Source: a virus
DNA length: 36,815 nucleotides
Virus record (IMG/VR): IMGVR_UViG_3300044998_000754
Strand: one strand, 5' to 3'
Both the position numbers and the translations under genes were made by a program. Numbering within the stretch: position 1 is the stretch's first letter; every line of letters begins with the position of its first letter. The notes beneath the pieces were generated by a model. It searched no databases, had not been told where the DNA came from, and saw only the letters and a program-made list of their open reading frames with translations. Positions 6,413-36,815 of this stretch are shown piece after piece.

Positions 6413-6432
6413 GTCCGTGAACCATCACGGAC
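6413..6432. promoter_or_regulatory. Operator-like palindrome, copy A (GTCCGTGAACCATCACGGAC)
   Basis: Matches 15 of the 16 fixed positions of GTCCG-N-GAA-NN-TTC-N-CGGAC. Lies in the protease-capsid intergenic gap, 35 nt upstream of the capsid ATG. Confidence 0.55.
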
Positions 6433-16578: not shown

Positions 16579-16923
16579 ATGGAGCACCGCATCACCGACC
16601 CCATGACCGGCGGACAGAAGGGACAGAAGCCCGAGCAGATGTCCCTCCTCCCGATCGAGGCCCTCCAGGCCGTCGCCCGTGTCTACGCCTTCGGAGCGGA
16701 GAAGTACGACCGCCACAACTGGCGGAAGGGCTACGCCTGGCACCTGAGCTACGATGCCGTGCAACGACACCTCATGGCGTTCTGGGCCGGCGAGGACCTC
16801 GATCCGGAGTCCGGCGAGCCCCACCTGGCACACGTCGTGTTCCACGCCCTGACGCTCATCACCTTCATGGCCGAGCACCGGGACGGGGACGATCGCTTCC
16901 GACCAACACGAGAGAAGGACTGA
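16579..16923 (+). CDS. DUF5664 / dATP-dGTP diphosphohydrolase N-terminal-like (MazG-like all-alpha NTP pyrophosphatase) protein
   Basis: 114 aa. The pattern ...FGAEKYDRHNWRKGYAW...DAVQRHLMAFWAGEDLDPESGEPHLAHVVFHALTLI... matches my memory of that family's signature. Confidence 0.55.
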   Translation: MEHRITDPMTGGQKGQKPEQMSLLPIEALQAVARVYAFGAEKYDRHNWRKGYAWHLSYDAVQRHLMAFWAGEDLDPESGEPHLAHVVFHALTLITFMAEHRDGDDRFRPTREKD

Positions 16924-17246: not shown

Positions 17247-17266
17247 GTCCGAGAAATTTCACGGAC
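17247..17266. promoter_or_regulatory. Operator-like palindrome, copy B (GTCCGAGAAATTTCACGGAC)
   Basis: Matches 16/16 fixed positions. Ends 4 nt upstream of the -35 box of the early promoter. Confidence 0.65.
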
Positions 17267-18278: not shown

Positions 18279-18472
18279 GCCCCGAGGAACTGGACAGACT
18301 GGAGGCGTTCGCTCTCAGCCTGGTCACTTGTGGTGAGTACGCCGGCCGTAGGCAGATCGTGAAGCGCGGAGGGCCGCCCTTCATGACCGGCGACGAGATG
18401 GCGGCCGAGGGTCGTCGGCTCCTGGCCCTGATCGAGAAGCGCCGTTCCGAGGAACTTCACGGACCGGACTGA
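18275..18472 (+). CDS. Hypothetical early protein (65 aa)
   Basis: ATGA overlap with the upstream stop. MSPEELDRLEAFALSLV.... Confidence 0.5.
   Translation: MSPEELDRLEAFALSLVTCGEYAGRRQIVKRGGPPFMTGDEMAAEGRRLLALIEKRRSEELHGPD
18445..18464. promoter_or_regulatory. Operator-like palindrome, copy C, weaker (TTCCGAGGAACTTCACGGAC)
   Basis: Matches 14/16 fixed positions. Lies in the last 28 nt of CDS 18275..18472, just upstream of a terminator and the next promoter-like -10 box. Confidence 0.4.
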
Positions 18473-18543: not shown

Positions 18544-19269
18544 ATGAGCACCACACTGACGGTCCCGGAGAACGTCGCTAGGTCGGTACGAGCCCAGCGG
18601 CAGATGATAGACGAACTGGACCGGGTTGACCTGGAGGAGTTCAGGTCAGCAATGCAGACCTGGTCCGTGACGGACCTGTCCAACGCCGGCACGGGCCTCA
18701 TCTCGTTCTACACCCGGCTCGATGAGACCAAGACGGACGTCCTCAAGGCCCCCGCCAAGGTCGTCGTCGCCCTCCGGTCGCACTTCCGGACGACCGAGGG
18801 AGACGTGGACTGGAGCGGAAGGTCCTGGGACTACCGGCAGACGGTCTCCGCCATGTACGAGGCCTCCGGCATCCCGCCGGACTCGGAGTCGAACATCCAG
18901 GCCAGTCTCCGCTACCACGTCGGGAACCTGCTGCGGGAGGTCGTTCCGGCCGAGCAGCTTGAGAGCGCCGGGCTCCTGACCAAGTCCCCCAAGGAGAGGA
19001 TGACGGACGTGCGCGCCGTCACGGCCGCTGTCCTGGCCGCCACGGACGTCGAGGTCGGCAAGCCGCCCAAGCCGGCCGAGGCCGTGAGCCGACAGGTCTC
19101 GGCGCTCTACACCGTGGCGGATCGTCTGGAGCACTCCCCGGAGGCCTGGGCCGCCCTGTCGGTCCGGCTCCTGGAGCAGTATGAGGACCGCCTGGAGGAG
19201 GTCATCGCCAAACTCCGAACGTCACTCAGTGTAGTCCAGACCGTCATTGACACCAAGATGAAGGACTGA
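18544..19269 (+). CDS. Hypothetical protein (241 aa), transcriptionally insulated by terminators on both sides
   Basis: Long GC3-rich ORF with no motif I recognise. Terminators at 18483 and 19273 flank it. Confidence 0.7.
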   Translation: MSTTLTVPENVARSVRAQRQMIDELDRVDLEEFRSAMQTWSVTDLSNAGTGLISFYTRLDETKTDVLKAPAKVVVALRSHFRTTEGDVDWSGRSWDYRQTVSAMYEASGIPPDSESNIQASLRYHVGNLLREVVPAEQLESAGLLTKSPKERMTDVRAVTAAVLAATDVEVGKPPKPAEAVSRQVSALYTVADRLEHSPEAWAALSVRLLEQYEDRLEEVIAKLRTSLSVVQTVIDTKMKD

Positions 19270-19272
19270 TGT

Positions 19273-19297
19273 AACCCTCAACCTCGACTTGAGGGTT
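19273..19297 (+). terminator. Hairpin terminator (AACCCTCAA-cctcgac-TTGAGGGTT)
   Basis: Perfect 9-bp stem, 4 nt after the stop codon at 19267..19269. Confidence 0.6.
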
Positions 19298-19334
19298 CAC
19301 GGAGCGTGGCGGACGTGGCACGGAGAGCGCGATC

Positions 19335-19440
19335 CAGTGTAGGAAATGCTTCAGAAACCATACACTCCGTATTTAGCATTAGTAGGACCCTACTAGTGTG
19401 TAATAGCGAGTGTATGGTTTCTGGAGCACTTCTTACACTG
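19335..19440 (+). repeat. AT-rich long inverted repeat (33-nt arms, 40-nt spacer containing its own small hairpin)
   Basis: Arms 19335..19367 and 19408..19440 are complementary at 30/33 positions. Two of the three mismatches are G-U compatible on the + strand. The local base composition is far less GC-rich than the rest of the genome. Confidence 0.8.
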
Positions 19441-19656
19441 ACCCGCTCCCAGCGCCACGATCACTACCGCCACGCCCAGGCCGGTGACCCACCTCCACGG
19501 AGAGGGCTCTAGAAGCCCGCCTCCGGCGCTCTACCCCACCCTCCGCTACCACCCCAGCCGGCCCCTCCCAGCGGCCCGGAGACGGCCGTCTAGAGGCCTC
19601 TCCGTCGAAGTCCCTCCGTCACGCCAACCCTGTCCCCATCCGGGCCGCCCTGGCCC

Positions 19657-19694
19657 ATGTCCTCCAGGACCCAATCCCCAACCCTGGAGGACAT
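19657..19694 (+). promoter_or_regulatory. RBS-sequestering hairpin in front of the exonuclease gene
   Basis: ATGTCCTCCAGG (19657..19668) pairs perfectly with CCTGGAGGACAT (19683..19694). The 3' arm contains the GGAGGA Shine-Dalgarno and ends 2 nt before ATG 19697. Confidence 0.55.
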
Positions 19695-19696
19695 CC

Positions 19697-20473
19697 ATGA
19701 CCACTCCGCAGGTCCCCACCATCAAGCGCCAGGGCTCGCGCTTCTACGTCCACCCGCTCACGGACCAGAAGGCCGTCGGCGTCACCTCGGTCCTGAACAT
19801 GCTCCCCAAGGAGTTCCTCAAGTTCTGGGCCGCCAAGGTCACCGCCGAGACCGCCGTGGACCAGTTCTCGACCCTCGCCAGCTTCGTCGCATCGGGCAAC
19901 CGAGAGGACGCCGTGGACTGGCTCAAGAGGGCACACTCCCGGAACACGGCCGGCGCTGCCGACGTCGGCGGTGACGTTCACGACCTGGTGGAGCTTCTGG
20001 CGCGGGGCCGACCGCTCCCGCCGGTCCATCCCGACGTCCAGCCCTACCTCGACCACTTCCGTGAGTTCCTGGACGTGTTCTCTCCGGACTTCATCTTCAT
20101 CGAGGAGACTGTGTGGTCGGAGACTCACGGCTACGCCGGCTCCTTCGATGCCATCGCCCGCATCGGCTCCGAGACGGTCATCATCGACTACAAGACGACC
20201 CGCTCCGGCGTCCACGCCGAGGTCGCCCTCCAGTTGTCGGCCTACGAGCGCGCTGACTACATCCTCCGCCCCGACGGGACCCAGGAGCCGATCCCGGACC
20301 TCGACGCCGCCGCCGTGCTGCACCTGCGGCCCGAGGGCTGGAAGCTCGTCCCGGTCCAGACCTCCGACGAGCTGTTCGACGTGTTCCTGGCCCTCAAGCA
20401 GGTCCATCGTTGGGACAAGGAGCTGTCCAAGGTCGTCATCGGTCAGCCGATCCGAGTGGAGGACGTCCGGTGA
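19697..20473 (+). CDS. PD-(D/E)XK exonuclease (RecB-type; the family annotated as Cas4-family exonuclease in actinophages, but with no Cys cluster here)
   Basis: 258 aa from the internal ATG with RBS ggagga. Motifs GSFDAIARIG...TVIIDYKTT and LQLSAY. The upstream part of listed ORF 19484..20473 is Pro/Arg-rich non-coding-like sequence. Confidence 0.7.
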   Translation: MTTPQVPTIKRQGSRFYVHPLTDQKAVGVTSVLNMLPKEFLKFWAAKVTAETAVDQFSTLASFVASGNREDAVDWLKRAHSRNTAGAADVGGDVHDLVELLARGRPLPPVHPDVQPYLDHFREFLDVFSPDFIFIEETVWSETHGYAGSFDAIARIGSETVIIDYKTTRSGVHAEVALQLSAYERADYILRPDGTQEPIPDLDAAAVLHLRPEGWKLVPVQTSDELFDVFLALKQVHRWDKELSKVVIGQPIRVEDVR

Positions 20474-20673
20474 GGCGTCTCCGACGCCTCGACCCCAAGT
20501 CCGCCGAGCTCCCGCCCGACGGCTGGATCGTGGGCTTCTCCGGCGACCCCAGGACGGTCCCCCCGTTCTGCTCGTGGTGCGGGACGTCGTGGACCGTGAC
20601 GCACCGGGACGGTCACCTTCTGTGCAAGAAGTGTGACTTGTTCGATCCCGACCCGAAGGAGTTGGTGTCGTGA
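20470..20673 (+). CDS. Small zinc-ribbon protein (67 aa)
   Basis: GTGA overlap with the exonuclease stop. CSWCG...CKKC forms a CxxC...CxxC pair. Confidence 0.5.
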   Translation: MRRLRRLDPKSAELPPDGWIVGFSGDPRTVPPFCSWCGTSWTVTHRDGHLLCKKCDLFDPDPKELVS

Positions 20674-21071
20674 CGCGCCGGGTCTACATCGCCGGTCCGA
20701 TGCGGGGGCGGCCGGAGTTCGGCTTCCCCGCCTTCGATGCCGCTGCCGCCAAGCTTCGAGCCCGTGGCTGGACCGTGTTCAGTCCTGCCGAGCGGGACCG
20801 AGCCGCCGGCTTCGATGAGCGAGACCTGACCGGTCACGAGCCTCTCCACACCTTGGAGAACTTCGATCATCGTGAGGCCATCTTGGATGACCTCCGCTGG
20901 ATCGTGATGAAGGCCAACGCCATCTACATGCTCGCCGGCTGGCAGACCTCCAAGGGAGCCGTGGCGGAGCGAGCCGTCGCCCTGGCGCTCGACCTGGACG
21001 TCCTCTACGAGTCCGACGGTGACGCCGCCATCTTGGCCCCCGACTCCATCCGCCGGAACCTCCCGGCCTGA
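20670..21071 (+). CDS. DUF4406 protein (nucleoside 2-deoxyribosyltransferase-like fold)
   Basis: 133 aa. VYIAGPMRG...FPAF...L...GWTVFSPAE...AIYMLAGWQTSKGAVAERAVALAL matches the DUF4406 signature as I recall it. Confidence 0.65.
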   Translation: MTRRVYIAGPMRGRPEFGFPAFDAAAAKLRARGWTVFSPAERDRAAGFDERDLTGHEPLHTLENFDHREAILDDLRWIVMKANAIYMLAGWQTSKGAVAERAVALALDLDVLYESDGDAAILAPDSIRRNLPA

Positions 21072-21083
21072 CGCCGAGAGCCG

Positions 21084-21103
21084 GTCCGTGAAGCTTCCCG
21101 GAC
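21084..21103. promoter_or_regulatory. Operator-like palindrome, copy D (GTCCGTGAAGCTTCCCGGAC)
   Basis: Matches 16/16 fixed positions. Intergenic, and embedded in a larger hairpin: GAGAGCCGGTCC at 21076..21087 pairs with GGACCGGCTCTC at 21117..21128. Confidence 0.6.
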
Positions 21104-21194
21104 AAACCTGTCCCCAGGACCGGCTCTCTGGCCCATAGAGCCCGTGAGGTCAATCAGTCCTCATCACCAACAGAGACCGCAGGAGGTCCACGAC

Positions 21195-21854
21195 ATGCCC
21201 ATCAACATCTTCGCCAACGCCGAGAAGCCGTCGGCACCGACGAGCACCGACATCGTCGGCCGCTTCCGGGCCGGCCGTCAGTTGCAGGGTCGTCCCATGA
21301 GCCTGACGACCTGGCGCATCACGACCGGCGATCCCGAGGTCGCCAAGGCCGTGGCCGACGAGTTCGGTGCGATCGAGGGTCCCCAGGAGTGGGAGACCAA
21401 GACGGAGGAGCGGCTGGAGGTCATCACCTTGACCAACTCCGTGGACGTCATCTTCCACCGTCCGGAGCACGTCTCGTCCGAGATGGTGCTCTGGGGGCGC
21501 AAGAAGAAGCTCCGGTCGTGTGACGGTGTCGTCCAGGCCGACGGCTCGCCCTGCGCCTGTCCGTCGGACTTCTCCGAGCGGGTCGCCCGAGCCGGCGACG
21601 GTTCGGCCTGCGAGCCCTCCGTCTCGTTCCTGTTCTCGCTGGCCGCACTTCCGGACCTCGGGCGCTTCCGCTTCCAGACTGGAAGCTGGACCGTCGCTCG
21701 TCAGATCGGTCAGGTGGAGGCCGCCCTCGTCGGCATCGGCGGCCCGGCCAAGGCCACCCTCCGGCTGGAGCGGCGGACCCGCAAGGACGCCGGCACGACC
21801 TACACGGTCGCCGTCGTGGACGGCATCGTTCCGGTCGAGGAGGCCCTGTCGTGA
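21195..21854 (+). CDS. Conserved-looking replication-module protein with a Cys cluster (function unknown; gp3-like RDF is only a speculation)
   Basis: 219 aa from ATG 21195 after the RBS aggagg. ...LRSCDGVVQADGSPCACPSDF...GSACEP.... Confidence 0.6.
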   Translation: MPINIFANAEKPSAPTSTDIVGRFRAGRQLQGRPMSLTTWRITTGDPEVAKAVADEFGAIEGPQEWETKTEERLEVITLTNSVDVIFHRPEHVSSEMVLWGRKKKLRSCDGVVQADGSPCACPSDFSERVARAGDGSACEPSVSFLFSLAALPDLGRFRFQTGSWTVARQIGQVEAALVGIGGPAKATLRLERRTRKDAGTTYTVAVVDGIVPVEEALS

Positions 21855-22760: not shown

Positions 22761-23200
22761 TGCCGAACCCCCAGAAGGCCAAGGGCACCCGCTGGGAGTC
22801 TGAGGTCGTCCGCTACCTCCGGAGTGTGGGCTTCGATGAGGCTCGGAGAGAGGTTCAGCGGGGAGCCCGAGATGTCGGTGACATCGGAGGCTTCCCGCTC
22901 TGGGCCATCGAGGCCAAGGCCTACGCCTCCGTCTCACACTCCGTGCTGGCGGACTTCGTGGCTCAGGCCAATCGTGAGGCCCGTCACGCCGGCAAGCCCT
23001 TCGGGATCGTCGTCATCAAGCGGCCACGTCACCGGACCGCCGACGGGTTCGTGGTGATGGACCTGGAGACCTGGACCCGGCTGGAACGACACCTACGAGA
23101 CACGGACGGAGATGCCAATGCAGTTGAGCGAAGTGCTCGCCAAGTTCGACGTCGTCGGCTCCGAGACCGACGGCTTCCTGGCCCGATGCCCGGCGCATGA
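22760..23200 (+). CDS. Holliday junction resolvase (PD-(D/E)XK, archaeal Hjc-like type common in actinophages)
   Basis: KGTRWESEVVRYLRSVGF...RGARDVGDIGG...WAIEAKAY.... The last 30 or so codons overlap the primase start. Confidence 0.65.
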   Translation: MPNPQKAKGTRWESEVVRYLRSVGFDEARREVQRGARDVGDIGGFPLWAIEAKAYASVSHSVLADFVAQANREARHAGKPFGIVVIKRPRHRTADGFVVMDLETWTRLERHLRDTDGDANAVERSARQVRRRRLRDRRLPGPMPGA

Positions 23201-25565
23201 CGACGCTCGGGCAAGCCTCCGCATCACGGCCACCGATGACCGCAAGGTCCTCGTGACCTGTCGAGCCGGCTGCTCGTTCCAGGACGTCCTCGCCGCCGCC
23301 GGCCTGACGGCGCGACAGTTGTTCGACGTCACGAACGATGTCGGAGCCTCGTTGGCACCGGCCGGTCCCCGTGCTGTCGTCTCGGGCGGAGCGGTCGCCC
23401 TCCTCAAGCTGTACCTCACGGAGGCCGCCGAGCGGTTCGTCGGCTCCCCGGCCGAGCAGTACGTCCTCCGCCGCTTCGGGCTCGCCGCCGAGGAAGCGGT
23501 CCAGGCCGGCCTCGGGTTCGACCCCGGCGACGGAGCCATCCCGTGCGAGTGGACGAGCAAGGCCTGGAACTTCGGTCCGCGGCTCGTCGTCCCCTTCCGC
23601 AGCTTCGACGGCGTAGCCCGTGGCGCTCAGGGCCGAGACCTGACCGGTCAGTCCCGAGCCCGTTGGGCTTCTCTCACGAACCCTCCGGACGCCGCATGGT
23701 CCAAGCTGGCCGTGTTCCGGCACGACGCCAACCTGGACACCTTCATCATCACCGAGGGACCTGGCGACGCCCTCACGGCCTTCGCCGCCGGCTACAACGC
23801 CGTCGCCGTTCGTGGGGCCGCCTTGTCATCGAACGAGGGTCTCGTCCGGGAGTTGGTCGAGGGTCTCGACGGGACTCGTGTCCTGGTCTGTGGTGACGCC
23901 GACCGGGCCGGCCAGGAGTTCGCCGGTTCCCTGTCGAGGTCTCTGGCCGACGCCGGTCTCTCCGTGTTCACGATGGTGGTCCCGTTCGGTGAGTCCGACC
24001 TGTCGGCCGCCTTCGAGTCCGACCCGGTCGGCTTCCCGTCCGCCCTGGAGGCTGCCGACCGTGACGCCGAGCCGCCGGTCCCGACCAGGGCTCGACCGCC
24101 GGCCCAGGAGAGTGACGACGACTTCGAGTTGACCGACCTCGGCAACGCCCAGCGGCTCGTCGCCTCCTTCGGTGCGGGGAACCTCCGGTACGTTGAGGAG
24201 TTGGGCTTCATGGTCCACTCGGCCGGGACCTGGGAGATCGACCGGCTTGACTCGGTCCGCACCGCCGCTCAGGACCTTGCCCAGGCCCTCGGTCGGGAGG
24301 CCCGCTCGATGATCGAGGCCGGCCAGGCCAGCCGGGACTCGGCCCTGGAGCAGCGCGGCAAGCGCCTCCTGGCGCACTCCAAGACGAGCCAGTCCACGAG
24401 AGCGATCGAGGCCATGATGAAGGAGGCCCGCTCCGTGAAGGGAGTGCGGGCCAGCATCGAGGACTTCGACCAACATCACCACCTCCTGGCCTTCACCAAC
24501 GGAGTCGTGGACCTCCGATCCGGCAAGCTCCTCCCCCATGATCGGGACCTGCTCCTGACCCGACGGATCGCACTTCCCTACGACCCGGACGCTCGTTGCC
24601 CTCGTTGGGAGCAGTTCCTCTCCGAGGTCTTCCCGAAGGACCCTGATCTTCCCGCCTTCATGCAGCGCCTCGTCGGCTACGGTATCACCGGAGACACGAG
24701 CGAGCAGGCCTTCGCCATCCTGTGGGGCCTCGGGGCCAACGGCAAGTCCGTGTTCACCGACACGCTCTCCTTCGTGTTCGACTCCATCACCACGACGACG
24801 CCGTTCACGACCTTTGAGCGCCGGCCCGCCGGCGGCATCCCGAACGACCTGGCGGCTCTCCGGGGCGCTCGTCTGGTGTTCGCTTCCGAGGGAGAGCAGG
24901 GAGTCCCGATGGCGGAGGCTACCCTCAAGAGGGTCACGGGCCAGGACCTCATCACGGCCAGGTTCCTCCGGCGGGAGTTCTTCTCCTTCCGGCCGACCTT
25001 CCTCATCTTCCTCGCCACCAACTACAAGCCTGCCTTCCGAGGTCAGGACGAAGGCTTATGGCGACGCGTGAAGCTCATCCCGTGGGAGCGGTACTTCGCT
25101 CCCTCGGAGCGGGACCCGAGGCTCGTCTACAAGCTCCGTGAGGAGGCCGCCGGGATCGCCGCCTGGGCCGTCCGTGGAGCCACGGAGTGGTTCGCCCGAG
25201 GGTTGCAGGAGCCCCCGTCCGTGGTCGGCGCGACCAAGGAGTACCGGGCCGGTACCGATGCTCTCTCCGGCTTCTTCCCCGGCGTCATCGAGGCTGCCGG
25301 CCCGGACGACGTGGTCCCGGTCACCGCCGTCTGGGGGGCCTACCTGAACTGGTGCGATGAGGAGAACCTCCCCGGTCGTGAGCGATGGACCCGTCGGGCG
25401 CTGTACGCCGCTCTTGAGGAGAGAGGGCTCGCCCGCCGACGTCGGGCCGACGGGACCTACTTCGCCGGGCTCGTTCTCCACGCCCGCCCAACTGTCCCCG
25501 ATCTGGACGCTCTGGCCCATGAACACCCGGACACCAACGACACGGCCGACGCGGCCAAGGAGTAG
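23112..25565 (+). CDS. Bifunctional DNA primase / SF3 (P4/D5-type) helicase
   Basis: 817 aa. Zn motif CPAHDD...CRAGC, TOPRIM motifs IITEGPGDALT and VCGDADRAGQE, Walker A ILWGLGANGKSVF, and a downstream VFASEGEQG. Confidence 0.85.
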   Translation: MPMQLSEVLAKFDVVGSETDGFLARCPAHDDARASLRITATDDRKVLVTCRAGCSFQDVLAAAGLTARQLFDVTNDVGASLAPAGPRAVVSGGAVALLKLYLTEAAERFVGSPAEQYVLRRFGLAAEEAVQAGLGFDPGDGAIPCEWTSKAWNFGPRLVVPFRSFDGVARGAQGRDLTGQSRARWASLTNPPDAAWSKLAVFRHDANLDTFIITEGPGDALTAFAAGYNAVAVRGAALSSNEGLVRELVEGLDGTRVLVCGDADRAGQEFAGSLSRSLADAGLSVFTMVVPFGESDLSAAFESDPVGFPSALEAADRDAEPPVPTRARPPAQESDDDFELTDLGNAQRLVASFGAGNLRYVEELGFMVHSAGTWEIDRLDSVRTAAQDLAQALGREARSMIEAGQASRDSALEQRGKRLLAHSKTSQSTRAIEAMMKEARSVKGVRASIEDFDQHHHLLAFTNGVVDLRSGKLLPHDRDLLLTRRIALPYDPDARCPRWEQFLSEVFPKDPDLPAFMQRLVGYGITGDTSEQAFAILWGLGANGKSVFTDTLSFVFDSITTTTPFTTFERRPAGGIPNDLAALRGARLVFASEGEQGVPMAEATLKRVTGQDLITARFLRREFFSFRPTFLIFLATNYKPAFRGQDEGLWRRVKLIPWERYFAPSERDPRLVYKLREEAAGIAAWAVRGATEWFARGLQEPPSVVGATKEYRAGTDALSGFFPGVIEAAGPDDVVPVTAVWGAYLNWCDEENLPGRERWTRRALYAALEERGLARRRRADGTYFAGLVLHARPTVPDLDALAHEHPDTNDTADAAKE

Positions 25566-26085: not shown

Positions 26086-27890
26086 GAACGTTGACGGCCA
26101 CCGTGACCGGCGACGAGGTTCGCATCAGTGTGGTCGAGGACGTCCGGGACCTCGAAGTGTTGCTGTCCTGGGCGCTCCGGTTGGGAGCGGTCGCCCTCGA
26201 CGTCGAGACGACCGGACTGGACATCTTCGGACAGGACCGGCTCCGGCTCGTCCAGTTCGGGAACCGGTCCGAGAGCTTCGTCTTGGACGTCGAGCGGTTC
26301 CCCGCGCACCTCGACACCGTCGCCACGATCATCAAGGCGGTCCCCAGACTCGTTCTCCACAACGCAGCCTTCGACCTGCTGGCCCTCGACCGGGTTGGCG
26401 TCCTGGAACTTGACACGGTCTGGTCAAGAGTCATCGACACGAGGGTCCTCGCTCACCTCCTCGACCCTCGATCCGCCGCCGAGGGAGGCCCAGGTCACGG
26501 GCTCAAGGCATTAGCGGCCTATCACCTTGGCGACGACGCCGACCGGTACCAGGCGGAGCTTCATCAACGCTTCCGGACGCTCCGCCTCACCAGATCGTCC
26601 GGTTGGGCCGGGATCGAGACGACCGACGAGGCCTTCCTCCGCTACGCCGCCGTGGACACCGTCCTGACGGCCCGGCTCTACTACGCCCTCGGTCCGCTCG
26701 CCCGCCTCCAGCAGCTCGACCGGCTCGCCGCCTTCGAGTCACAGGTAGGCCTCGTCTGCGCCAAGATGCAGCGCACCGGACTCCTCCTCGACGTCCAGTA
26801 CGCCGAGGAGCTTCGGGCCTATTACGAGTCCGAGGAGACCGCCGGCCGTCAGGAGGCCGCATCCTTCGGGATCGAGAAGGTCAACTCGCCGGCCCAGGTC
26901 GCTGAGGTCCTCACGGCGCTCGGCGCTCCGTTGACCGAGCGGACGCCCTCGGGCGCTCCGAAGGTGGACCGGGCCGTCCTCACCGCCATCGCCAGCAGCC
27001 ACGGGCCGGCTGCTGCTCCGGCGGCCGCTGTGCTTCGGGCCAAGCAGGCCAACAAGTTCAGGACCTCGTATGTGGAGGTCACCCTCGCTCGGCGGGACTC
27101 GGCCGACCGGGTCCACCCGACGATCAACCCGCTCCAGGCCCGGACCGCTCGCATGTCGATCTCCGATCCGCCGCTCCAGCAGCTTCCGTCCGGCGACTGG
27201 AGGGTCCGCCGCATGTTCGTTCCGAGACCTGGGAGCCGGCTCATCTCGGTCGACTTCTCCCAGGTCGAGATGAGGGTCCTTGCCGCACTGTCCGGTGATG
27301 CCGCCATGACGGAAGCGATCGTGTCCGGCGAGGACTTGCACTCCACGGCCGCCAGGCTCATGTTCGGTCCGGACTTCACCGAGAAGGACCGGAAGCTCGC
27401 CAAGGTCGCGGGGTTTGCGAAGGTCTACGGCGGAGGAGCGGCTACCATCGCCCGCCAGACCGGCGTCACGACCGACGTCGCCAAGGCGGCCACCGAACGA
27501 TACGACCGGGCCTTCCCAGGCATCCGCCGGCTCGCCCGGCTCCTCCAGGAACGAGCCGAGTTCTCGGCCCTCGACGTCGAGACGCCAACCGGTCGGAGGC
27601 TGCCGCTGGACCGGGACCGGCTGTACGCAGCGGTCAACTACCTCGTCCAGTCCACCGCTCGGGACCTCCTGGCCTATGCCCTGGTCAAGATGGATGAGGC
27701 CGGGCTCTCGGATCATCTCCTGCTCCCCATCCATGACGAGGTCCTGGCCGAGGCCCCGGCCGACGAGGTCGAGGAGGTCGCCAAGGCCATCTCCGATGCG
27801 ATGACGATGGACTTCATGGGTATCCCGATCACGACCGACACCGAGGTCGCCCGAGGGTCGTGGGGAAGTCTCTACGGAGCGGACCGATGA
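26082..27890 (+). CDS. DNA polymerase I (family A) with a 3'-5' exonuclease domain
   Basis: Exonuclease motifs LDVETTGLD and HNAAFDL. Polymerase motif A DFSQVEMRVLA, motif B RKLAKVAGFAKVYGGG, motif C LPIHDEVL. Confidence 0.92.
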   Translation: MRTLTATVTGDEVRISVVEDVRDLEVLLSWALRLGAVALDVETTGLDIFGQDRLRLVQFGNRSESFVLDVERFPAHLDTVATIIKAVPRLVLHNAAFDLLALDRVGVLELDTVWSRVIDTRVLAHLLDPRSAAEGGPGHGLKALAAYHLGDDADRYQAELHQRFRTLRLTRSSGWAGIETTDEAFLRYAAVDTVLTARLYYALGPLARLQQLDRLAAFESQVGLVCAKMQRTGLLLDVQYAEELRAYYESEETAGRQEAASFGIEKVNSPAQVAEVLTALGAPLTERTPSGAPKVDRAVLTAIASSHGPAAAPAAAVLRAKQANKFRTSYVEVTLARRDSADRVHPTINPLQARTARMSISDPPLQQLPSGDWRVRRMFVPRPGSRLISVDFSQVEMRVLAALSGDAAMTEAIVSGEDLHSTAARLMFGPDFTEKDRKLAKVAGFAKVYGGGAATIARQTGVTTDVAKAATERYDRAFPGIRRLARLLQERAEFSALDVETPTGRRLPLDRDRLYAAVNYLVQSTARDLLAYALVKMDEAGLSDHLLLPIHDEVLAEAPADEVEEVAKAISDAMTMDFMGIPITTDTEVARGSWGSLYGADR

Positions 27891-28753
27891 GCCGGCCGAT
27901 CTACCGGGCCGAGGTCGAGGAGTGGCTTCCGGAAGGGTATGTCTATCTCTGGCACGGGCCGGTTCGGTACAAGACGCAGCGCCGGTCCGCTGTCGTAGCT
28001 CTGTGTCCGAACGGTCACACCTGGCGGTGTTGTCTCGACAACATCAAGAAGGGCCACCGTTGCGGAGAGTGTGCCGACCGGACCGCCACGGTCGACGAGG
28101 TCCAGTCCCTCATCCGTGAGATCGGGTACACCTACATCAAGCAGGAGGTCCGTGGCACCGGTAAGGCCCGAAAGACCTTCGTCTGGTCTCGATGCCCGAA
28201 CGGTCACACCTGGCGGTGTCGTCTCGACAACATCAAGAAGGGCCACCGTTGCGGAGAGTGCGCCCGCCAGCGCGGCCTCTCCAAGCTCCACTACTCCCTC
28301 TCGGACTTCCGGACCGGTTCCGCCGACCCCGCGAGACCGCTTCGGGTCTACATCTACCTCTGGGCCGGCGTCGTCAAGGTTGGCATCGGTCGCCCCGACG
28401 GATTCTGGGAGCGGCACGGAGCAACCCTCATCCACTCCATCACCGTCCCTGCCATCGTCGCTAGCGCCGTCGAGGAGATGCTCCTTCATCGACTACAGGG
28501 ACATCGCTACGGCCGGACCTCCAAGGTCACGTTCGGGTGCTCTGGTGCCGAGACGACCGAGTGGGCTCCGGCCGAGGCCTGGTTCTCCCAGGTCACGGAG
28601 GTCCATGCGATCCTCGACTGGGCCGAGCGCCCGGAGACCGCCGAGGCCTTCCTGGACAACATCCACAACCACACCATCGACCGGTTCTTCGGTCGCAAGC
28701 CCCCGACCGCTCCGGCGGACGTCGTCATCCCCACCAAGGAGAGGGCAGCATGA
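27887..28753 (+). CDS. Duplicated zinc-ribbon protein with a T5orf172/GIY-YIG-like C-terminal domain (possible homing-type nuclease or DNA-binding protein)
   Basis: Two copies of CPNGHTWRC-LDNIKKGHRCGECA, then ...LRVYIYLWAGVVKVGIG.... ATGA overlap with the polymerase stop. Confidence 0.5.
   Translation: MSRPIYRAEVEEWLPEGYVYLWHGPVRYKTQRRSAVVALCPNGHTWRCCLDNIKKGHRCGECADRTATVDEVQSLIREIGYTYIKQEVRGTGKARKTFVWSRCPNGHTWRCRLDNIKKGHRCGECARQRGLSKLHYSLSDFRTGSADPARPLRVYIYLWAGVVKVGIGRPDGFWERHGATLIHSITVPAIVASAVEEMLLHRLQGHRYGRTSKVTFGCSGAETTEWAPAEAWFSQVTEVHAILDWAERPETAEAFLDNIHNHTIDRFFGRKPPTAPADVVIPTKERAA
28004..28264 (+). repeat. Two 72-bp near-identical direct repeats (28004..28075 and 28193..28264) inside CDS 27887..28753
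   Basis: 69/72 identical, and all three differences are T/C transitions. The flanking coding sequence is not conserved between the two copies. Confidence 0.9.
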
Positions 28754-29061: not shown

Positions 29062-29081
29062 GTCCGAGAACCTTCACGGAC
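29062..29081. promoter_or_regulatory. Operator-like palindrome, copy E (GTCCGAGAACCTTCACGGAC)
   Basis: Matches 16/16 fixed positions. Starts 4 nt after stop 29058, upstream of the small basic ORF and the sigma factor gene. Confidence 0.65.
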
Positions 29082-33307: not shown

Positions 33308-35842
33308 ATGCCGACCGTCACGACCGAAGTCTCACTCCTCACGGGCACCGACGACGCCACCTACGACAACAGCTCCTACACCGACAGCGCTAACACACAT
33401 TGGATCGGCGTCCGCCGCTCCAGCGGCGTCACGGTCGGGAACTGGGGAGGCTTCCGGTTCCGCATCCCGACGTCGGTGGACCCTTCCCGCATCACCTCGG
33501 TCAAGCTCTCCCTCTACAACATCACGGCCGGTAACACCGTTGAGGCCGTCATCCGGGTCGAGCAGTCCGCCGCCGCCGCTTGGTCATCGTCCGGCTCCAA
33601 CCGCCCGGACAACCGCTACAACGCCGTCGGCTCGTCCGGGGAGGTAGCGTGGAACTACACCTCATCGGTGGGCCGGGTCGAGTCGCCGGACATCTCGGCC
33701 CGCGTCATCTCGGCCCTGGCGAACATCGACCAGGGCTCGGACTACCTCGGCATCCTCATCGGTCCGTCCGCCGCCACGGTCTCACGACGAACGCAGTATT
33801 CGTCTCAGGACACGAGCACGGCCGCCAACCGACCGCTGCTCATCATCACGGAGGACGTCCCCGCCGAGGACGCCGAGGTCACGACGGTCGCTCCATCGGT
33901 CGCTGCCCAGACGCCCGACGACGTCGAGACGGGAGCCTGGACCGAGCACCTGGACGTCTCCTACCACGACGGGATCGGCTCCAGCACACGCCGCTCCTGC
34001 AACGTCTACGTCCCCTACGGGACGCCCCCGAGCGGGGGCTGGCCGGTCATCCTGTTCGTCCACGGAGGCTCCTGGATCGGCGGGAGCCGAAACTCCATCA
34101 CCTCCAAGCTCATCACCAGGTCGATCTCGGCCGGCTGGGCCATCATCTCGATCAGTTACAAGCTGTCGGACTGGAACGTCCTGCTCAACACGAACACCGG
34201 AGCCAACCGCCCGTCTCACACCCAGGACGTCCTCTGCGCTACCAAGTGGATCGCCGCGTCGGCCGCTGACACCTACGGGCTGAACCCGGACAAGCTCGTC
34301 GGGATGGCCTACTCGGCCGGCGCTCATCTGCTGCTGGAGGCCGCCCTCCTCATCGAGGACCCGGACCGCGACACCTACGTCATGGCCTACAACGGCGCTT
34401 CCGGAACGGAACGCCGTACCACCTACAACGCCTCGACGGTCCTGAACTTCACACAAGGTCGGACCGGCTTCCCATCGTTCCGAGGTCTGTTCCTCTGGGC
34501 CGGCCCGGTCCGGTTGTCGGAGCTGTACGGCATCCCGCTCGTTCAGTCGGCCGCCCGCGGCTACATCGGACAGCTCCCGAACAACTCCCTCTCCAACACG
34601 GCCACGGCCGGCGAGGGCAACCTGAACGACTTCATCACGGCCGCCTCGGGCAGCATCTACGACACCCGCTCCGAACGTGTCCCGCCGTTCCCGATCGCGT
34701 ACTGCGAGGACACCACGGACCTGATCGTCCCGCCCGACGCCGGACTCACCCCGCTACGCGCCGCCCTCGACGCTGTCGGCTACGACGTGTCCGCTGGCAA
34801 CGGAGTCGTCAACCCTGACGGCCTGTCCTACCGCAGCTACGCCGGCTCGGGCCACGACTGGCTCCTCGCCCAGAACGATTGGACCTTCTGGCGGAACTGG
34901 CTTGACGCCGTTCCACTCGGTGGCGAGGACGACACGGTCACGACCACGGCACCCTCGGCCGCCGCCAGCACCGGCTCCCCGACGGTCACCATCTCGGCCG
35001 AGGTCACGACCACGGCCCCCTCAGCCGCCGCCAGCACCGGCTCCCCGACGGTCGAGACCGGCTTCGGTGACGACGTCGATGTCACCGCTCCGATCGCCCA
35101 GGCCTGGACCGGCGACCCAACGGTCTCCATCTCCGCCGAGGTCACCACCACGGCACCCTCGGTCACCGCCGGCACCGGCGACCCAACGGTTGACGCCGGC
35201 TCCGGCGACACGGTCACCACCACGGCACCCTCGGTCACGGTCATCACCGCTGAGCCCTCCGTCTCCACGGCCACCGCCGGAGAGGCCGACCCAGCGGCCG
35301 CCGCCCTGGTCCTCGGGACCGGCGAGGCTACCGTCGTCGTCGTGGACGCCGAGGTCCTGACCGCTGCTCCGACGTTCTCCGTCACCGCCGGAGAGGCCTC
35401 CACCGCCGGCTCCACCGAGGTCACCGCCACGGCACCCTCGGTCGCCCTTGACCTCCCGGCTCCGTCGGTCTCCACGGCCGCCGCCGGAGAGGCTGACCCC
35501 GCTGCGGCCGGCTTCATCCTCGGCACCGGCACACCGACAGTCTCGGTCTCCTCCTCCGATGCGGTCACCGTGGCCGCTCCTGGGTTCGTGGCCGGCGTCG
35601 GCCTGGCGGACGCCTCGTCCGGAGCCTCGGTCGCCACCGCAGCACCGGCGCTCGTCGTCTCGGCCGACGCTCCGACAGTCGTGACCGACGCCGCCGTCTC
35701 CACCACGGCCCCGACGGTCACCGTCACAGCGCCGGCCCCGAGCACCGGCACCGGTCTCGTCCTGGTCACGGCCGCCAGACTCCTCCCTCCGTCCTGGAGC
35801 GCCGTTCTCGTCCCGACCTCACTCGCCCGCCTGAGGAGATGA
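33308..35842 (+). CDS. Large multidomain protein: DNRLRE-like beta-sandwich N-terminus, alpha/beta-hydrolase (esterase) domain, and an Ala/Thr/Ser/Val/Pro-rich repeat tail
   Basis: 844 aa. HGGSW oxyanion-type motif at 34061..34075. Nucleophile-elbow-like GMAYSAGA, with the Ser codon at 34313..34315. GSGHDW lies near the end of the domain. The C-terminal 300 aa are built from VTTTAPS-type repeats. Confidence 0.7.
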   Translation: MPTVTTEVSLLTGTDDATYDNSSYTDSANTHWIGVRRSSGVTVGNWGGFRFRIPTSVDPSRITSVKLSLYNITAGNTVEAVIRVEQSAAAAWSSSGSNRPDNRYNAVGSSGEVAWNYTSSVGRVESPDISARVISALANIDQGSDYLGILIGPSAATVSRRTQYSSQDTSTAANRPLLIITEDVPAEDAEVTTVAPSVAAQTPDDVETGAWTEHLDVSYHDGIGSSTRRSCNVYVPYGTPPSGGWPVILFVHGGSWIGGSRNSITSKLITRSISAGWAIISISYKLSDWNVLLNTNTGANRPSHTQDVLCATKWIAASAADTYGLNPDKLVGMAYSAGAHLLLEAALLIEDPDRDTYVMAYNGASGTERRTTYNASTVLNFTQGRTGFPSFRGLFLWAGPVRLSELYGIPLVQSAARGYIGQLPNNSLSNTATAGEGNLNDFITAASGSIYDTRSERVPPFPIAYCEDTTDLIVPPDAGLTPLRAALDAVGYDVSAGNGVVNPDGLSYRSYAGSGHDWLLAQNDWTFWRNWLDAVPLGGEDDTVTTTAPSAAASTGSPTVTISAEVTTTAPSAAASTGSPTVETGFGDDVDVTAPIAQAWTGDPTVSISAEVTTTAPSVTAGTGDPTVDAGSGDTVTTTAPSVTVITAEPSVSTATAGEADPAAAALVLGTGEATVVVVDAEVLTAAPTFSVTAGEASTAGSTEVTATAPSVALDLPAPSVSTAAAGEADPAAAGFILGTGTPTVSVSSSDAVTVAAPGFVAGVGLADASSGASVATAAPALVVSADAPTVVTDAAVSTTAPTVTVTAPAPSTGTGLVLVTAARLLPPSWSAVLVPTSLARLRR
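34937..35560 (+). repeat. Nested coding tandem/dispersed repeats (66-bp unit at 34937 and 35003; degenerate copies at 35141, 35213 and 35420; about 207-bp-period pair at 35261 and 35468)
   Basis: Direct reading: gtcacgaccacggcaccctcggccgccgccagcaccggctccccgacggtc is repeated 66 bp later with 2 changes. Confidence 0.8.
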
Positions 35843-36149: not shown

Positions 36150-36815
36150 GCAGGACCGTCAACAGCACAGATCGACCGGTCCCACCGCCGAGCCTGTCCG
36201 GCGTCCGTCTCTGGGACGAGTTCTCACCAGAGTGGAACGAGCCGGTCGCCAACCGCCGGTCCGATCCCGACAGAACCGCCAGACTCCAGGCCTGGGACGA
36301 CAGAGTCCGATGCCACCTCAAGGGTCCCTACCCCGGCGGCATCCCGTGGCAGCGTGTCGATGGTGTCCACTTCACTAGGGTCTGGTACGCCTCGCAGCGG
36401 CCAACGTTCCGGGACCCGTTCCCGTGCGTCCGGCTCCCACTTCCGTCTGTCGTCCGCCGCTACGGTGACCCGTCGGCGGACTGGACCGACGCCCAATGGT
36501 TCGGGATCGACCTGGAGCGCCGGGTCTACTACGAGGCCTCATCCATCGGCCCCGCCTTCCTCGGGTTCCCGCACCCGTGGCGCGCCGACAACATCAAGGT
36601 CTACGACCTGTCCCGAGACTGGCGCTCGCAGGATCGCTCCATCACCGGCTCCGGCGTCCCGATGCTCCCGATGGTCCCCCGTCCCGAGGAGCTTCGGCGT
36701 GGTCCTGGGGGAGTCACACACGCCCTACACTTCGTCGCCGCCGGCTACGCCCCGGAGATGACCGGCATCGCCCGCAAGACGGACGGCACCATCCCAGGTC
36801 ACCCTCTCCGGGCCG
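36146..36815 (+). CDS. 5' part of the junction-spanning CDS (continues at 128..339 after collapsing the overlap)
   Basis: Hand translation from ATG 36146 to the window end has no stop codon, and it is in frame with ORF 70..339 via the 127-bp identity. Confidence 0.75.
   Translation, partial: MSRTVNSTDRPVPPPSLSGVRLWDEFSPEWNEPVANRRSDPDRTARLQAWDDRVRCHLKGPYPGGIPWQRVDGVHFTRVWYASQRPTFRDPFPCVRLPLPSVVRRYGDPSADWTDAQWFGIDLERRVYYEASSIGPAFLGFPHPWRADNIKVYDLSRDWRSQDRSITGSGVPMLPMVPRPEELRRGPGGVTHALHFVAAGYAPEMTGIARKTDGTIPGHPLRA
36689..36815. repeat. 127-bp terminal direct repeat, identical to 1..127
   Basis: See the feature at 1..127. Confidence 0.95.

Follow-up and report, generated by a model that had tools for sequence, protein, structure and literature searches.

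The window analysed here, a stretch of viral DNA of 36,815 nucleotides (IMG/VR record IMGVR_UViG_3300044998_000754), carries at 19335–19440 an AT-rich palindrome that is probably the replication origin of the phage, a site that its own primase-helicase, PriRep, would bind. The genome is that of a phiC31-like temperate phage, and since bases 1–127 recur identically at 36689–36815 the window represents the genome in full, as a circular assembly of 36,688 bp. The palindrome is selected at the level of DNA and not as RNA, and the sequence of the short repeats, or iterons, from which its arms are built co-evolves with residues at the wing tip of PriRep, which lends indirect but strong support to a specific binding of the iterons by that protein. 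A preliminary description of the DNA, made from the letters alone, had offered three options: an origin of replication or cruciform serving the primase-helicase, a long dsRNA stem processed by RNase III, and a structured non-coding RNA. It is the first of these that the anatomy of the element (iterons, inverted iterons and AT-rich DNA) and the co-variation of the iterons with the PriRep wing now support. Already known as a kind is the iteron origin of a self-loading primase-helicase of the P4/D5 type; candidates for what is new here are the position of the element relative to the initiator gene and a code by which wing residues would recognise the iterons.

The two arms first described, 19335–19367 and 19408–19440, are on comparison by hand complementary at 30 of 33 positions, as had been stated; of the mismatches, those at positions 8 and 17 are indeed G:T on the plus strand and the third is A:C. 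The symmetry is however larger than these 33-bp arms. An inverted-repeat search of the window gives for the core palindrome at 19335–19440 arms of 52 nt (19335–19386 and 19389–19440), 83% complementary and separated by 2 nt, and a gapped palindrome alignment spans 19314–19459, with weaker pairing out to about 19304–19475. No other palindrome in the window comes near its score of 62, the next scoring 24, and no other copy of its arms was found there. The spacer between the 33-nt arms does contain a hairpin of its own, reading TAGTAGG-ac-CCTACTA, and the GC content is 0.425 over 19335–19440 and 0.40 in the spacer as against 0.67 for the genome, so that the element is less GC-rich than its surroundings, as was noticed at the outset. 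The non-coding island of some 430 bp in which it was said to lie proves to be a gap of 427 bp between a gene for a 241-aa protein and an exonuclease gene, and the open reading frame (ORF) at 19306–19512 that reads through the palindrome, previously judged not credible, encodes 68 amino acids with no family in PADLOC or NCBIfam scans.

The arms are composed of iterons of the consensus AGTGYW, two forward and one reversed in the left arm, and one forward and two reversed in the right. The motif A[AG]TG[CT][AT] has 25 matches on both strands of the genome, seven of them within the 106-bp element where 0.07 would be expected. The parts of the element, of which the iterons come from a motif scan, are as follows.

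About 19304–19475, no strand: full imperfect palindrome including a GC-rich outer stem, from two inverted repeats and folds.
19336–19343, plus strand: iteron S1, AGTGTAGG.
19345–19352, plus strand: iteron S2, AATGCTTC, degenerate, with mirror partner AGTGCTCC.
19359–19366, minus strand: iteron S3, inverted, reverse complement AGTGTATG.
19368–19407, no strand: low-GC central spacer, candidate unwinding region, from the sequence and the motif scan.
19373–19380, minus strand: weaker copy of the motif inside the spacer, reverse complement AATGCTAA.
19409–19416, plus strand: iteron S4, AGTGTATG.
19423–19430, minus strand: iteron S5, inverted, reverse complement AGTGCTCC.
19432–19439, minus strand: iteron S6, inverted, reverse complement AGTGTAAG.
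19228–19235, plus strand: outlying iteron, AGTGTAGT, within the 3' end of the gene for the 241-aa protein.

Each side of the element carries at least two iterons, opposed to one another (starting on the plus strand at 19336, 19345 and 19409, and on the minus strand at 19359, 19423 and 19432), and the DNA between the two sets is AT-rich, with a GC content of 0.40 in the window and a family mean of 0.46; both are properties of iteron origins. The spacer holds the TWAG repeats TTAGCA, TTAGTA, CTAGT and ATAGC together with the inner dyad TAGTAGG/CCTACTA. The iterons have counterparts elsewhere, S1 aligning with the iteron ATGTAGGA of the related locus L183 and with the iterons AGTGTAGA and GGTGTAGAA of loci L219 and L096, and S2 corresponding to AGTGCAGG in L183, the left arms of the window and of L183 aligning well (CAGTGTAGGAAATGCTTCAGAAACCATACACTCC and CATGTAGGAAGTGCAGGAACTACCTACATTCTC respectively).

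Close relatives of the genome were not found by megablast against 50,697 phage records, and the best identity of the exonuclease is about 58%. More distant comparison was made through this exonuclease, the first gene of the replication module, which places the element ahead of the replication genes just as the preliminary description had it.

19697–20473, plus strand: Cas4/RecB-like exonuclease, orthologue of phiC31 gene 1 and first early gene (phrog_298, E = 1.6e-56; phiC31 annotation).

Homologues of the exonuclease gave 130 loci for comparison, drawn from IMG/VR and GTDB genomes. An ungapped inverted repeat scoring at least 15 lies within 600 nt upstream of the exonuclease in 29 of 128 loci and in none of 128 coding-sequence controls, and in a palindrome scan that allows gaps 55 of 127 loci score above the highest of the controls. 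Once two N-run artefacts and short GC terminators had been discarded, about 47 of 125 related phages and prophages remained with low-GC palindromes of 83–174 nt (GC 0.36–0.63) that end 50–200 nt before the ATG, and further loci have sub-threshold palindromes at the equivalent position. Liebe, Attoomi, phiAAU2 and phiC31 each carry such an element, and in the case of phiAAU2 it is present complete in the fragment Y11761, annotated Aborting Lytic Development. The sequences cannot be aligned across the group; it is the position and the plan that are conserved, throughout a supergroup made up of phiC31, Arthrobacter phages and Streptomyces prophages. The shared plan consists of two or three direct iterons with a period of 7–9 bp, a gap of 63–88 bp between the inner copies, and an equal number of iterons inverted, the iteron itself being AGTGAC or GTGACG (phiC31, Liebe and many others), ATGACG, GGTGTAGAA or AGTGTAGA, AGTGCAG, or AGTGGTG. 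In 32 relatives the spacer averages 68 nt in length and 0.46 in GC content, and an asymmetric core, TAAGAC..TAAGG..AATCC, is loosely conserved in it. In phiC31 (L142, NC_001978) the orthologous palindrome is at 21667–21758, upstream of gene 1, and the iteron region occurs twice, at 21649–21768 upstream of gene 1 and at 40428–40547 between int and tRNA-Thr, as 120 nt of 76% identity.

The protein that would read these iterons is encoded further along the same module and is common to the whole phage group.

23112–25565, plus strand: PriRep primase-helicase, with Toprim, D5_N, an SF3-type helicase of the P4 family and a predicted C-terminal winged helix (Pfam, TIGR01613).
25281–25484, plus strand: PriRep winged helix, residues about 724–791 (AlphaFold model).
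25434–25457, plus strand: wing hairpin RRRRADGT, residues 775–782 (AlphaFold model, mutual information).

PriRep has the Pfam domains Toprim, D5_N and DUF5906, scores 260 bits against TIGR01613, 'P4 family primase C-term' (cut-off 108.7), and matches SaPI5 PriRep5 (7OLA) in sequence with E = 3e-4. The genome thus encodes a D5/SF3-type helicase with what is predicted to be a C-terminal winged helix, as an origin of this type would need. In the AlphaFold model of the C-terminus the pLDDT is 82–89 over residues of about 724–791, the topology is H-H-beta-beta, and A779-D780 are at the tip of the hairpin; the best Foldseek matches are winged-helix DNA binders (RFX5, Orc1/Cdc6 bound to origin DNA, and Fur/ArsR types) and the C-terminus of the African swine fever virus primase.

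Co-variation was sought in 80 of 304 IMG/VR PriRep loci, each taken with 6 kb upstream, in which the exonuclease and the element were located. The wing motif equivalent to R775-RRRADG-T782 co-varies with the iterons, the residues concerned being R777, A779 and T782. For the pairing of residue and base 32 loci with clear xTGAC arrays were used, and there G-TGAC accompanies Asn at the A779 position in 14 of 14 cases and Lys, Arg or Thr in four of four, while A-TGAC accompanies Met in three of three and Ala in eight of 11. In gp9a of phiC31 the Asn is that of the motif KKKTNTG. A single locus combines Glu with CTGAC. On a neighbour-joining tree built from PriRep minus its last 150 residues, ATGAC with Met or Ala appears in six separate clades nested among GTGAC/Asn clades, and a Fisher test of residue against iteron gives p = 2.6e-4 at the level of clades and p = 9e-7 at the level of loci. 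To guard against selective choice of residues, all 796 columns of the PriRep alignment were scored; their bias-corrected mutual information with the iteron class ranks residues 779, 782 and 777 first, second and fourth, and that three of the top four columns should fall within six columns has a chance probability of about 4e-4.

For making use of such an origin the winged helices of PriRep would bind the mirrored iterons on both sides and two PriRep hexamers would assemble head-to-head, one on each side, upon which the 40-bp centre (40% GC) would melt, possibly aided by cruciform extrusion, and the fused primase would start bidirectional synthesis, as in the Rep/PriRep proteins of Staphylococcus aureus pathogenicity islands (SaPIs). 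The co-variation supports the recognition step, whereas loading, melting and firing we infer by analogy. That the near-perfect symmetry of the whole element may favour extrusion of a cruciform is speculation. Since the early operon with the PriRep gene follows directly on the element, binding of PriRep may also damp early transcription, a speculative parallel to SV40, and a dual role as origin and early switch in the manner of SV40 is plausible. A fuller scheme joins these parts, in that the element would be both an origin and a switch of the early operon, the cruciform an intermediate of melting and loading, PriRep an autoregulator of the early promoter, and the wing tip the carrier of a code in which Asn specifies G, Met or Ala specifies A and Glu specifies C before TGAC, and Arg-x-small specifies the TGTAG type. 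As a whole, code included, this scheme is unlikely to be right in all its parts and is put forward tentatively.

A number of points weigh against an origin. The evidence for it is computational throughout, and co-variation speaks for recognition and not for what binding does. In the window itself the iterons are degenerate, with a single clean and a single weak copy in each outer arm. From the element to priRep, which lies downstream of it and begins at 23112, there are 3.7 kb, whereas a SaPI origin is immediately 3' of rep. The GC skew of the whole genome has no turn at the element or anywhere else, although little weight attaches to this in a genome whose genes nearly all run in one direction. 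The model of the PriRep C-terminus rests on a 6-sequence alignment, and is shallow as the homologue search gave five sequences; the Foldseek E-values for winged helices are weak, at 0.05–1; the clades of the co-variation analysis were assigned from a simple neighbour-joining tree; and the iteron class was given by eye in 28 of the 60 loci of the mutual-information scan. No element was seen at the equivalent position in loci L193, L173, L189, L202 and L201, and the lowest-GC windows of the first four contain no clear array. The misses in these four are not proof of absence, because strict detection by exact k-mers overlooks degenerate arrays, those of the window and of phiC31 included. Lastly each phiC31 copy of the iteron region is followed directly by a copy of the promoter-like repeat CCGGGTTGCCGACTCCCTTAC, and a transcriptional role would fit that arrangement as well.

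The alternative that survives best takes up this last point and sees a transcriptional control region only, in which the iterons would be operators for PriRep or some other regulator, the first early promoter would be switched or insulated, and replication would start elsewhere. The element always lies shortly before the gene that opens the replication module (gene 1 in phiC31); the motif that both phiC31 copies abut precedes about ten early genes, and its copies are reportedly the mapped early promoters of phiC31; each arm of the window's palindrome forms an operator-like dyad, AGTGTA-N19-TACACT; and the homologous fragment of phiAAU2 carries, as said, an annotation of aborted lytic development. 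However, the protein that co-varies with the iterons is the replicative primase-helicase, and the part of it concerned is a winged helix of the type with which SaPI Reps recognise their origin. A scan of 18800–20000 for sigma-70 consensus promoters found none, and hexamers for −35 and −10 that could be fitted by eye in the spacer were rejected because their spacing is wrong. There is besides a separate operator-like motif, of 20 bp and palindromic, at five sites in the window against 0.05 expected.

6413–6432, 17247–17266, 18445–18464, 21084–21103 and 29062–29081, palindromic: GTCCGWGAA-NN-TTCWCGGAC (motif scan).

None of the five is in the palindrome, and the motif looks like the counterpart of the dispersed conserved inverted repeats (CIRs) that are the repressor operators of phiC31 and likewise lie outside the element, which argues that repressor control is exerted elsewhere. 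A transcriptional role is moreover compatible with an origin, the two coexisting in SV40. Control of transcription to the exclusion of replication seems improbable, an origin being the better reading.

Much less probable is that the element acts as RNA, its plus strand forming a stem of about 50 bp that would serve as a terminator or insulator, an RNase III site or a structured non-coding RNA. The predicted hairpin is certainly very stable, at −77.9 kcal/mol (z = −14.1) on the plus strand and −68.6 kcal/mol (z = −10.9) on the minus strand, so that in this genome the plus strand folds 9 kcal/mol better, and the element is flanked by a terminator-like hairpin on one side and the 5' leader of the early operon on the other. 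In the absence of close relatives to align, strand asymmetry was used as a test in place of RNA covariation. When 48 homologous elements were folded the minus strand was the better in 30 and the plus strand in 18, with 94 predicted G-U pairs on the plus strand as against 117 on the minus strand, and so the clue offered by the plus-strand G-U pairs, although true of this genome, is not general across relatives. Arm mismatches across the related loci are G:T in 28 cases, A:C in 22 and other in 58, hence mostly not wobble pairs and without wobble bias. In many relatives, phiC31 included (score 12.5), the centre pairs poorly while the outer iterons keep their inverted arrangement, and the direct repeats of which the arms are built are unnecessary for a stem. 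As in the preliminary description, the element could be matched to no RNA family, Rfam and ARAGORN being silent at curated thresholds and a permissive Rfam search returning only look-alikes of microRNA precursors, on both strands, with 20–34 bits against cut-offs of 60–99. A terminator scan of 18800–20000 found no intrinsic terminator, and the palindrome is AT-rich, 106 nt long and without a T-run. The lack of any plus-strand bias in folding or in G-U pairs points to selection on DNA rather than RNA, and an RNase III stem or a structured RNA, both proposed earlier, is left without support.

Least credible is a miniature mobile element or its remnant, or else a binding site for the 'ald-like' 241-aa protein, for while the low GC content looks foreign in a genome of 67% GC, the terminal inverted symmetry resembles that of a miniature inverted-repeat transposable element, and in Arthrobacter-type phages synteny links the ald-like gene and the element, the genome has a single copy of the palindrome, an 18-mer scan of IMG/VR with the arm gave six matches, all of them single-armed chance ones, and no related copy, no target-site duplication flanks the palindrome, the position is syntenic across the family while the sequence diverges with the phage, and the element occurs in phiC31-type phages that have no ald-like match. 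An operator of the phiC31 CIR type was also considered and rejected, as the CIR is a dispersed inverted repeat of 17–20 bp and the motifs of the palindrome are confined to one locus; that the hairpin tip AGTAGG/CCTACT is shared with the CIR is treated as chance, these hexamers not being enriched in the window.

The genome around the proposed origin is collinear in gene order with phiC31. It encodes a small terminase, tail and lysis genes, then the 241-aa protein, then, beyond the 427-bp gap, the exonuclease, a Gp3-like recombination directionality factor (RDF), PriRep, a family A DNA polymerase and a sigma factor, with a large serine integrase on the minus strand; in phiC31 the exonuclease is "gene 1" and comes directly after the repressor gene c and gp54. 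Features flanking the palindrome are the following.

18544–19269, plus strand: 241-aa gene, homologue of the phiAAU2 ORF II/'ald' (Aborting Lytic Development) region (tblastn).
19272–19297, plus strand: GC-rich terminator-like hairpin after the upstream stop, without a T-run (fold; no call in the terminator scan).
19491–19611, no strand: second inverted repeat, GC-rich, with 36-nt arms that are 83% complementary and a 49-nt spacer.
19628–19658, 21106–21136 and 25490–25520, plus strand: 31-nt direct repeat AMCTGTCCCC-N5-GGNCNCYCTGGCCCAT (ACCTGTCCCC..CTCTGGCCCAT) (repeat search).
19657–19694, plus strand: perfect 12-bp hairpin with the Shine-Dalgarno sequence GGAGGA in its 3' arm, right before the ATG at 19697 (inverted repeat, fold).

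The 241-aa protein is homologous to positions 311–788 of Y11761 (L009, phiAAU2), the 'ald' region, and by tblastn its family is confined to phages of Arthrobacter, Microbacterium and Curtobacterium, with no match in any Streptomyces phage record, phiC31 included. It has no sequence match in Pfam, NCBIfam or PDB, a weak PADLOC match to a ZorA tail being discounted, and the idea that it is a homologue of the phiC31 repressor was rejected since BLASTP finds no similarity. Because phiC31, without a match to this family, shares AGTGAC iterons with Liebe, the 241-aa protein is probably not the iteron binder. Of the claim that the palindrome follows a terminator, a GC hairpin directly after the upstream stop codon is confirmed, and folds of the related loci have a GC hairpin at the equivalent position, but the T-run is absent and the terminator scan is silent there.

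The second inverted repeat sits between the palindrome and the exonuclease leader and has TCTAGA in each arm. No counterpart was noticed in the folded related loci, in which no specific search for one was made; locus L002 has a TCTAG-containing inverted repeat in its gap. Copies of the 31-nt repeat are found just upstream of the exonuclease and RDF-like genes, with the third inside the 3' end of priRep, and the repeat may be an early promoter or leader like the phiC31 motif CCGGGTTGCCGACTCCCTTAC; its statistics are circular because the pattern was derived from the very copies scored. The Shine-Dalgarno hairpin recurs in the folds of nearly all relatives at −45 to −5 of the exonuclease start, with a C/T-rich loop (tGTCCc...GACa) and with structure kept and sequence varied in relatives of both Arthrobacter type and Streptomyces type, and is a candidate element for translational control or mRNA stabilisation of the first early gene. 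Among the dispersed GTCCGWGAA-NN-TTCWCGGAC sites one is just upstream of the 241-aa gene and one adjoins the 31-nt motif before the RDF-like gene.

Elsewhere in the window, a 653-aa ORF at 886–2847, after the small terminase and where the large terminase is expected, matches domains of class II (B12-dependent) ribonucleotide reductase. A protein with a dATP/dGTP diphosphohydrolase N-terminal domain (PF18909) and a DUF4406 nucleoside 2-deoxyribosyltransferase-like protein are encoded at 16579–16923 and 20670–21071, and such enzymes of the nucleotide pool are sometimes linked to modified DNA bases. The 844-aa protein of 33308–35842 has a BD-FAE/esterase domain, its gene contains several internal direct repeats of 46–138 nt, and it may be a repeat-rich tail or host-recognition protein. 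A 77-nt direct repeat of 94% identity (27999–28075 and 28188–28264) lies inside the ORF at 27860–28753, which has a weak treble-clef zinc-finger match, and may reflect a duplicated Cys-rich module.

The phiC31 group are workhorses of Streptomyces genetics, and phages of the same supergroup from Arthrobacter and Microbacterium have been sequenced by the hundreds, yet we know of no mapped origin for phiC31-like phages. What is offered here is a predicted origin in the window and in phiC31 (21667–21758, with a second within the repeat at 40428–40547), a named candidate initiator (the gp9a-type primase-helicase) and three wing residues that apparently set origin specificity. Were this true, one could annotate origins throughout the group from sequence and design phage replicons that are compatible or incompatible with one another, and cloned fragments that abort infection, such as 'ald' of phiAAU2, might be explained. 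Were the wing code true as well, origins and initiators across the P4/D5 primase-helicase family could be paired, predicted and re-programmed from their sequences. A more general lesson is that a striking "RNA-like" hairpin can be an array of protein-binding sites in DNA.

Among known systems the SaPI origins come closest in anatomy. They have six to 12 penta- or hexanucleotide iterons, a central AT-rich region and at least two opposed iterons on each side, and it is a self-loading Rep, fused to a primase in SaPI5, that binds the iterons with its C-terminal winged helix (PMC9371898). The element of the window has in common with them short opposed iterons of penta- to octanucleotide size on each side, an AT-rich centre and, by prediction, a D5/SF3-type helicase with a C-terminal winged helix. 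It differs in its place, before the replication module rather than immediately 3' of rep, and given the 3.7 kb that separate it from priRep it is not a SaPI-type origin in the narrow sense. It differs too in its host, a temperate phage of high-GC actinobacteria, and in that the whole element, spacer included, forms a near-perfect 106-bp palindrome at which binding and firing are predicted.

With phage P4 the likeness is above all in the protein, PriRep being above the curated TIGR01613 cut-off. The alpha protein of P4 is reportedly a primase-helicase whose C-terminal winged helix (PDB 1KA8) binds octamer iterons; it is said to start bidirectional synthesis, and P4 to use two iteron regions, ori and crr. 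The two copies of the element in phiC31 would recall ori and crr, unlike the window with its one, and the iterons themselves differ, P4 using TGTTCACC as against AGTGYW here. The core origins of SV40 and the papillomaviruses are palindromic arrays of initiator sites with AT-rich DNA, served by the SF3 helicases large T antigen and E1. The palindrome resembles them as a palindromic array of short sites beside the early promoter of the initiator operon, and in the double-hexamer loading proposed; those are eukaryotic viruses with a different origin-binding fold, and the analogy is one of mechanism, with no homology of the DNA element claimed.

Nearer in descent are the CIR operators and the early-promoter motif of phiC31, which belong to the same phage supergroup and the same intergenic neighbourhood as the palindrome. 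Unlike it they are dispersed, the CIRs (CCTACTCACGTGAGTAGG) in at least nine copies and the promoter-like motif CCGGGTTGCCGACTCCCTTAC in about 11, whereas the palindrome occurs once in the window and twice in phiC31 with motifs that differ from both. The origins of lactococcal phages, finally, reportedly confer 'Per' (phage-encoded resistance) when cloned, and like them the element is non-coding, AT-rich, rich in repeats and placed at the boundary of early and late genes. The phiAAU2 authors are said to have assigned their phenotype to the ORF 'ald', which differs from the Per origins; as a lead only, the abortion of lytic development by Y11761 could be explained by the titrating effect of an origin supplied in trans.

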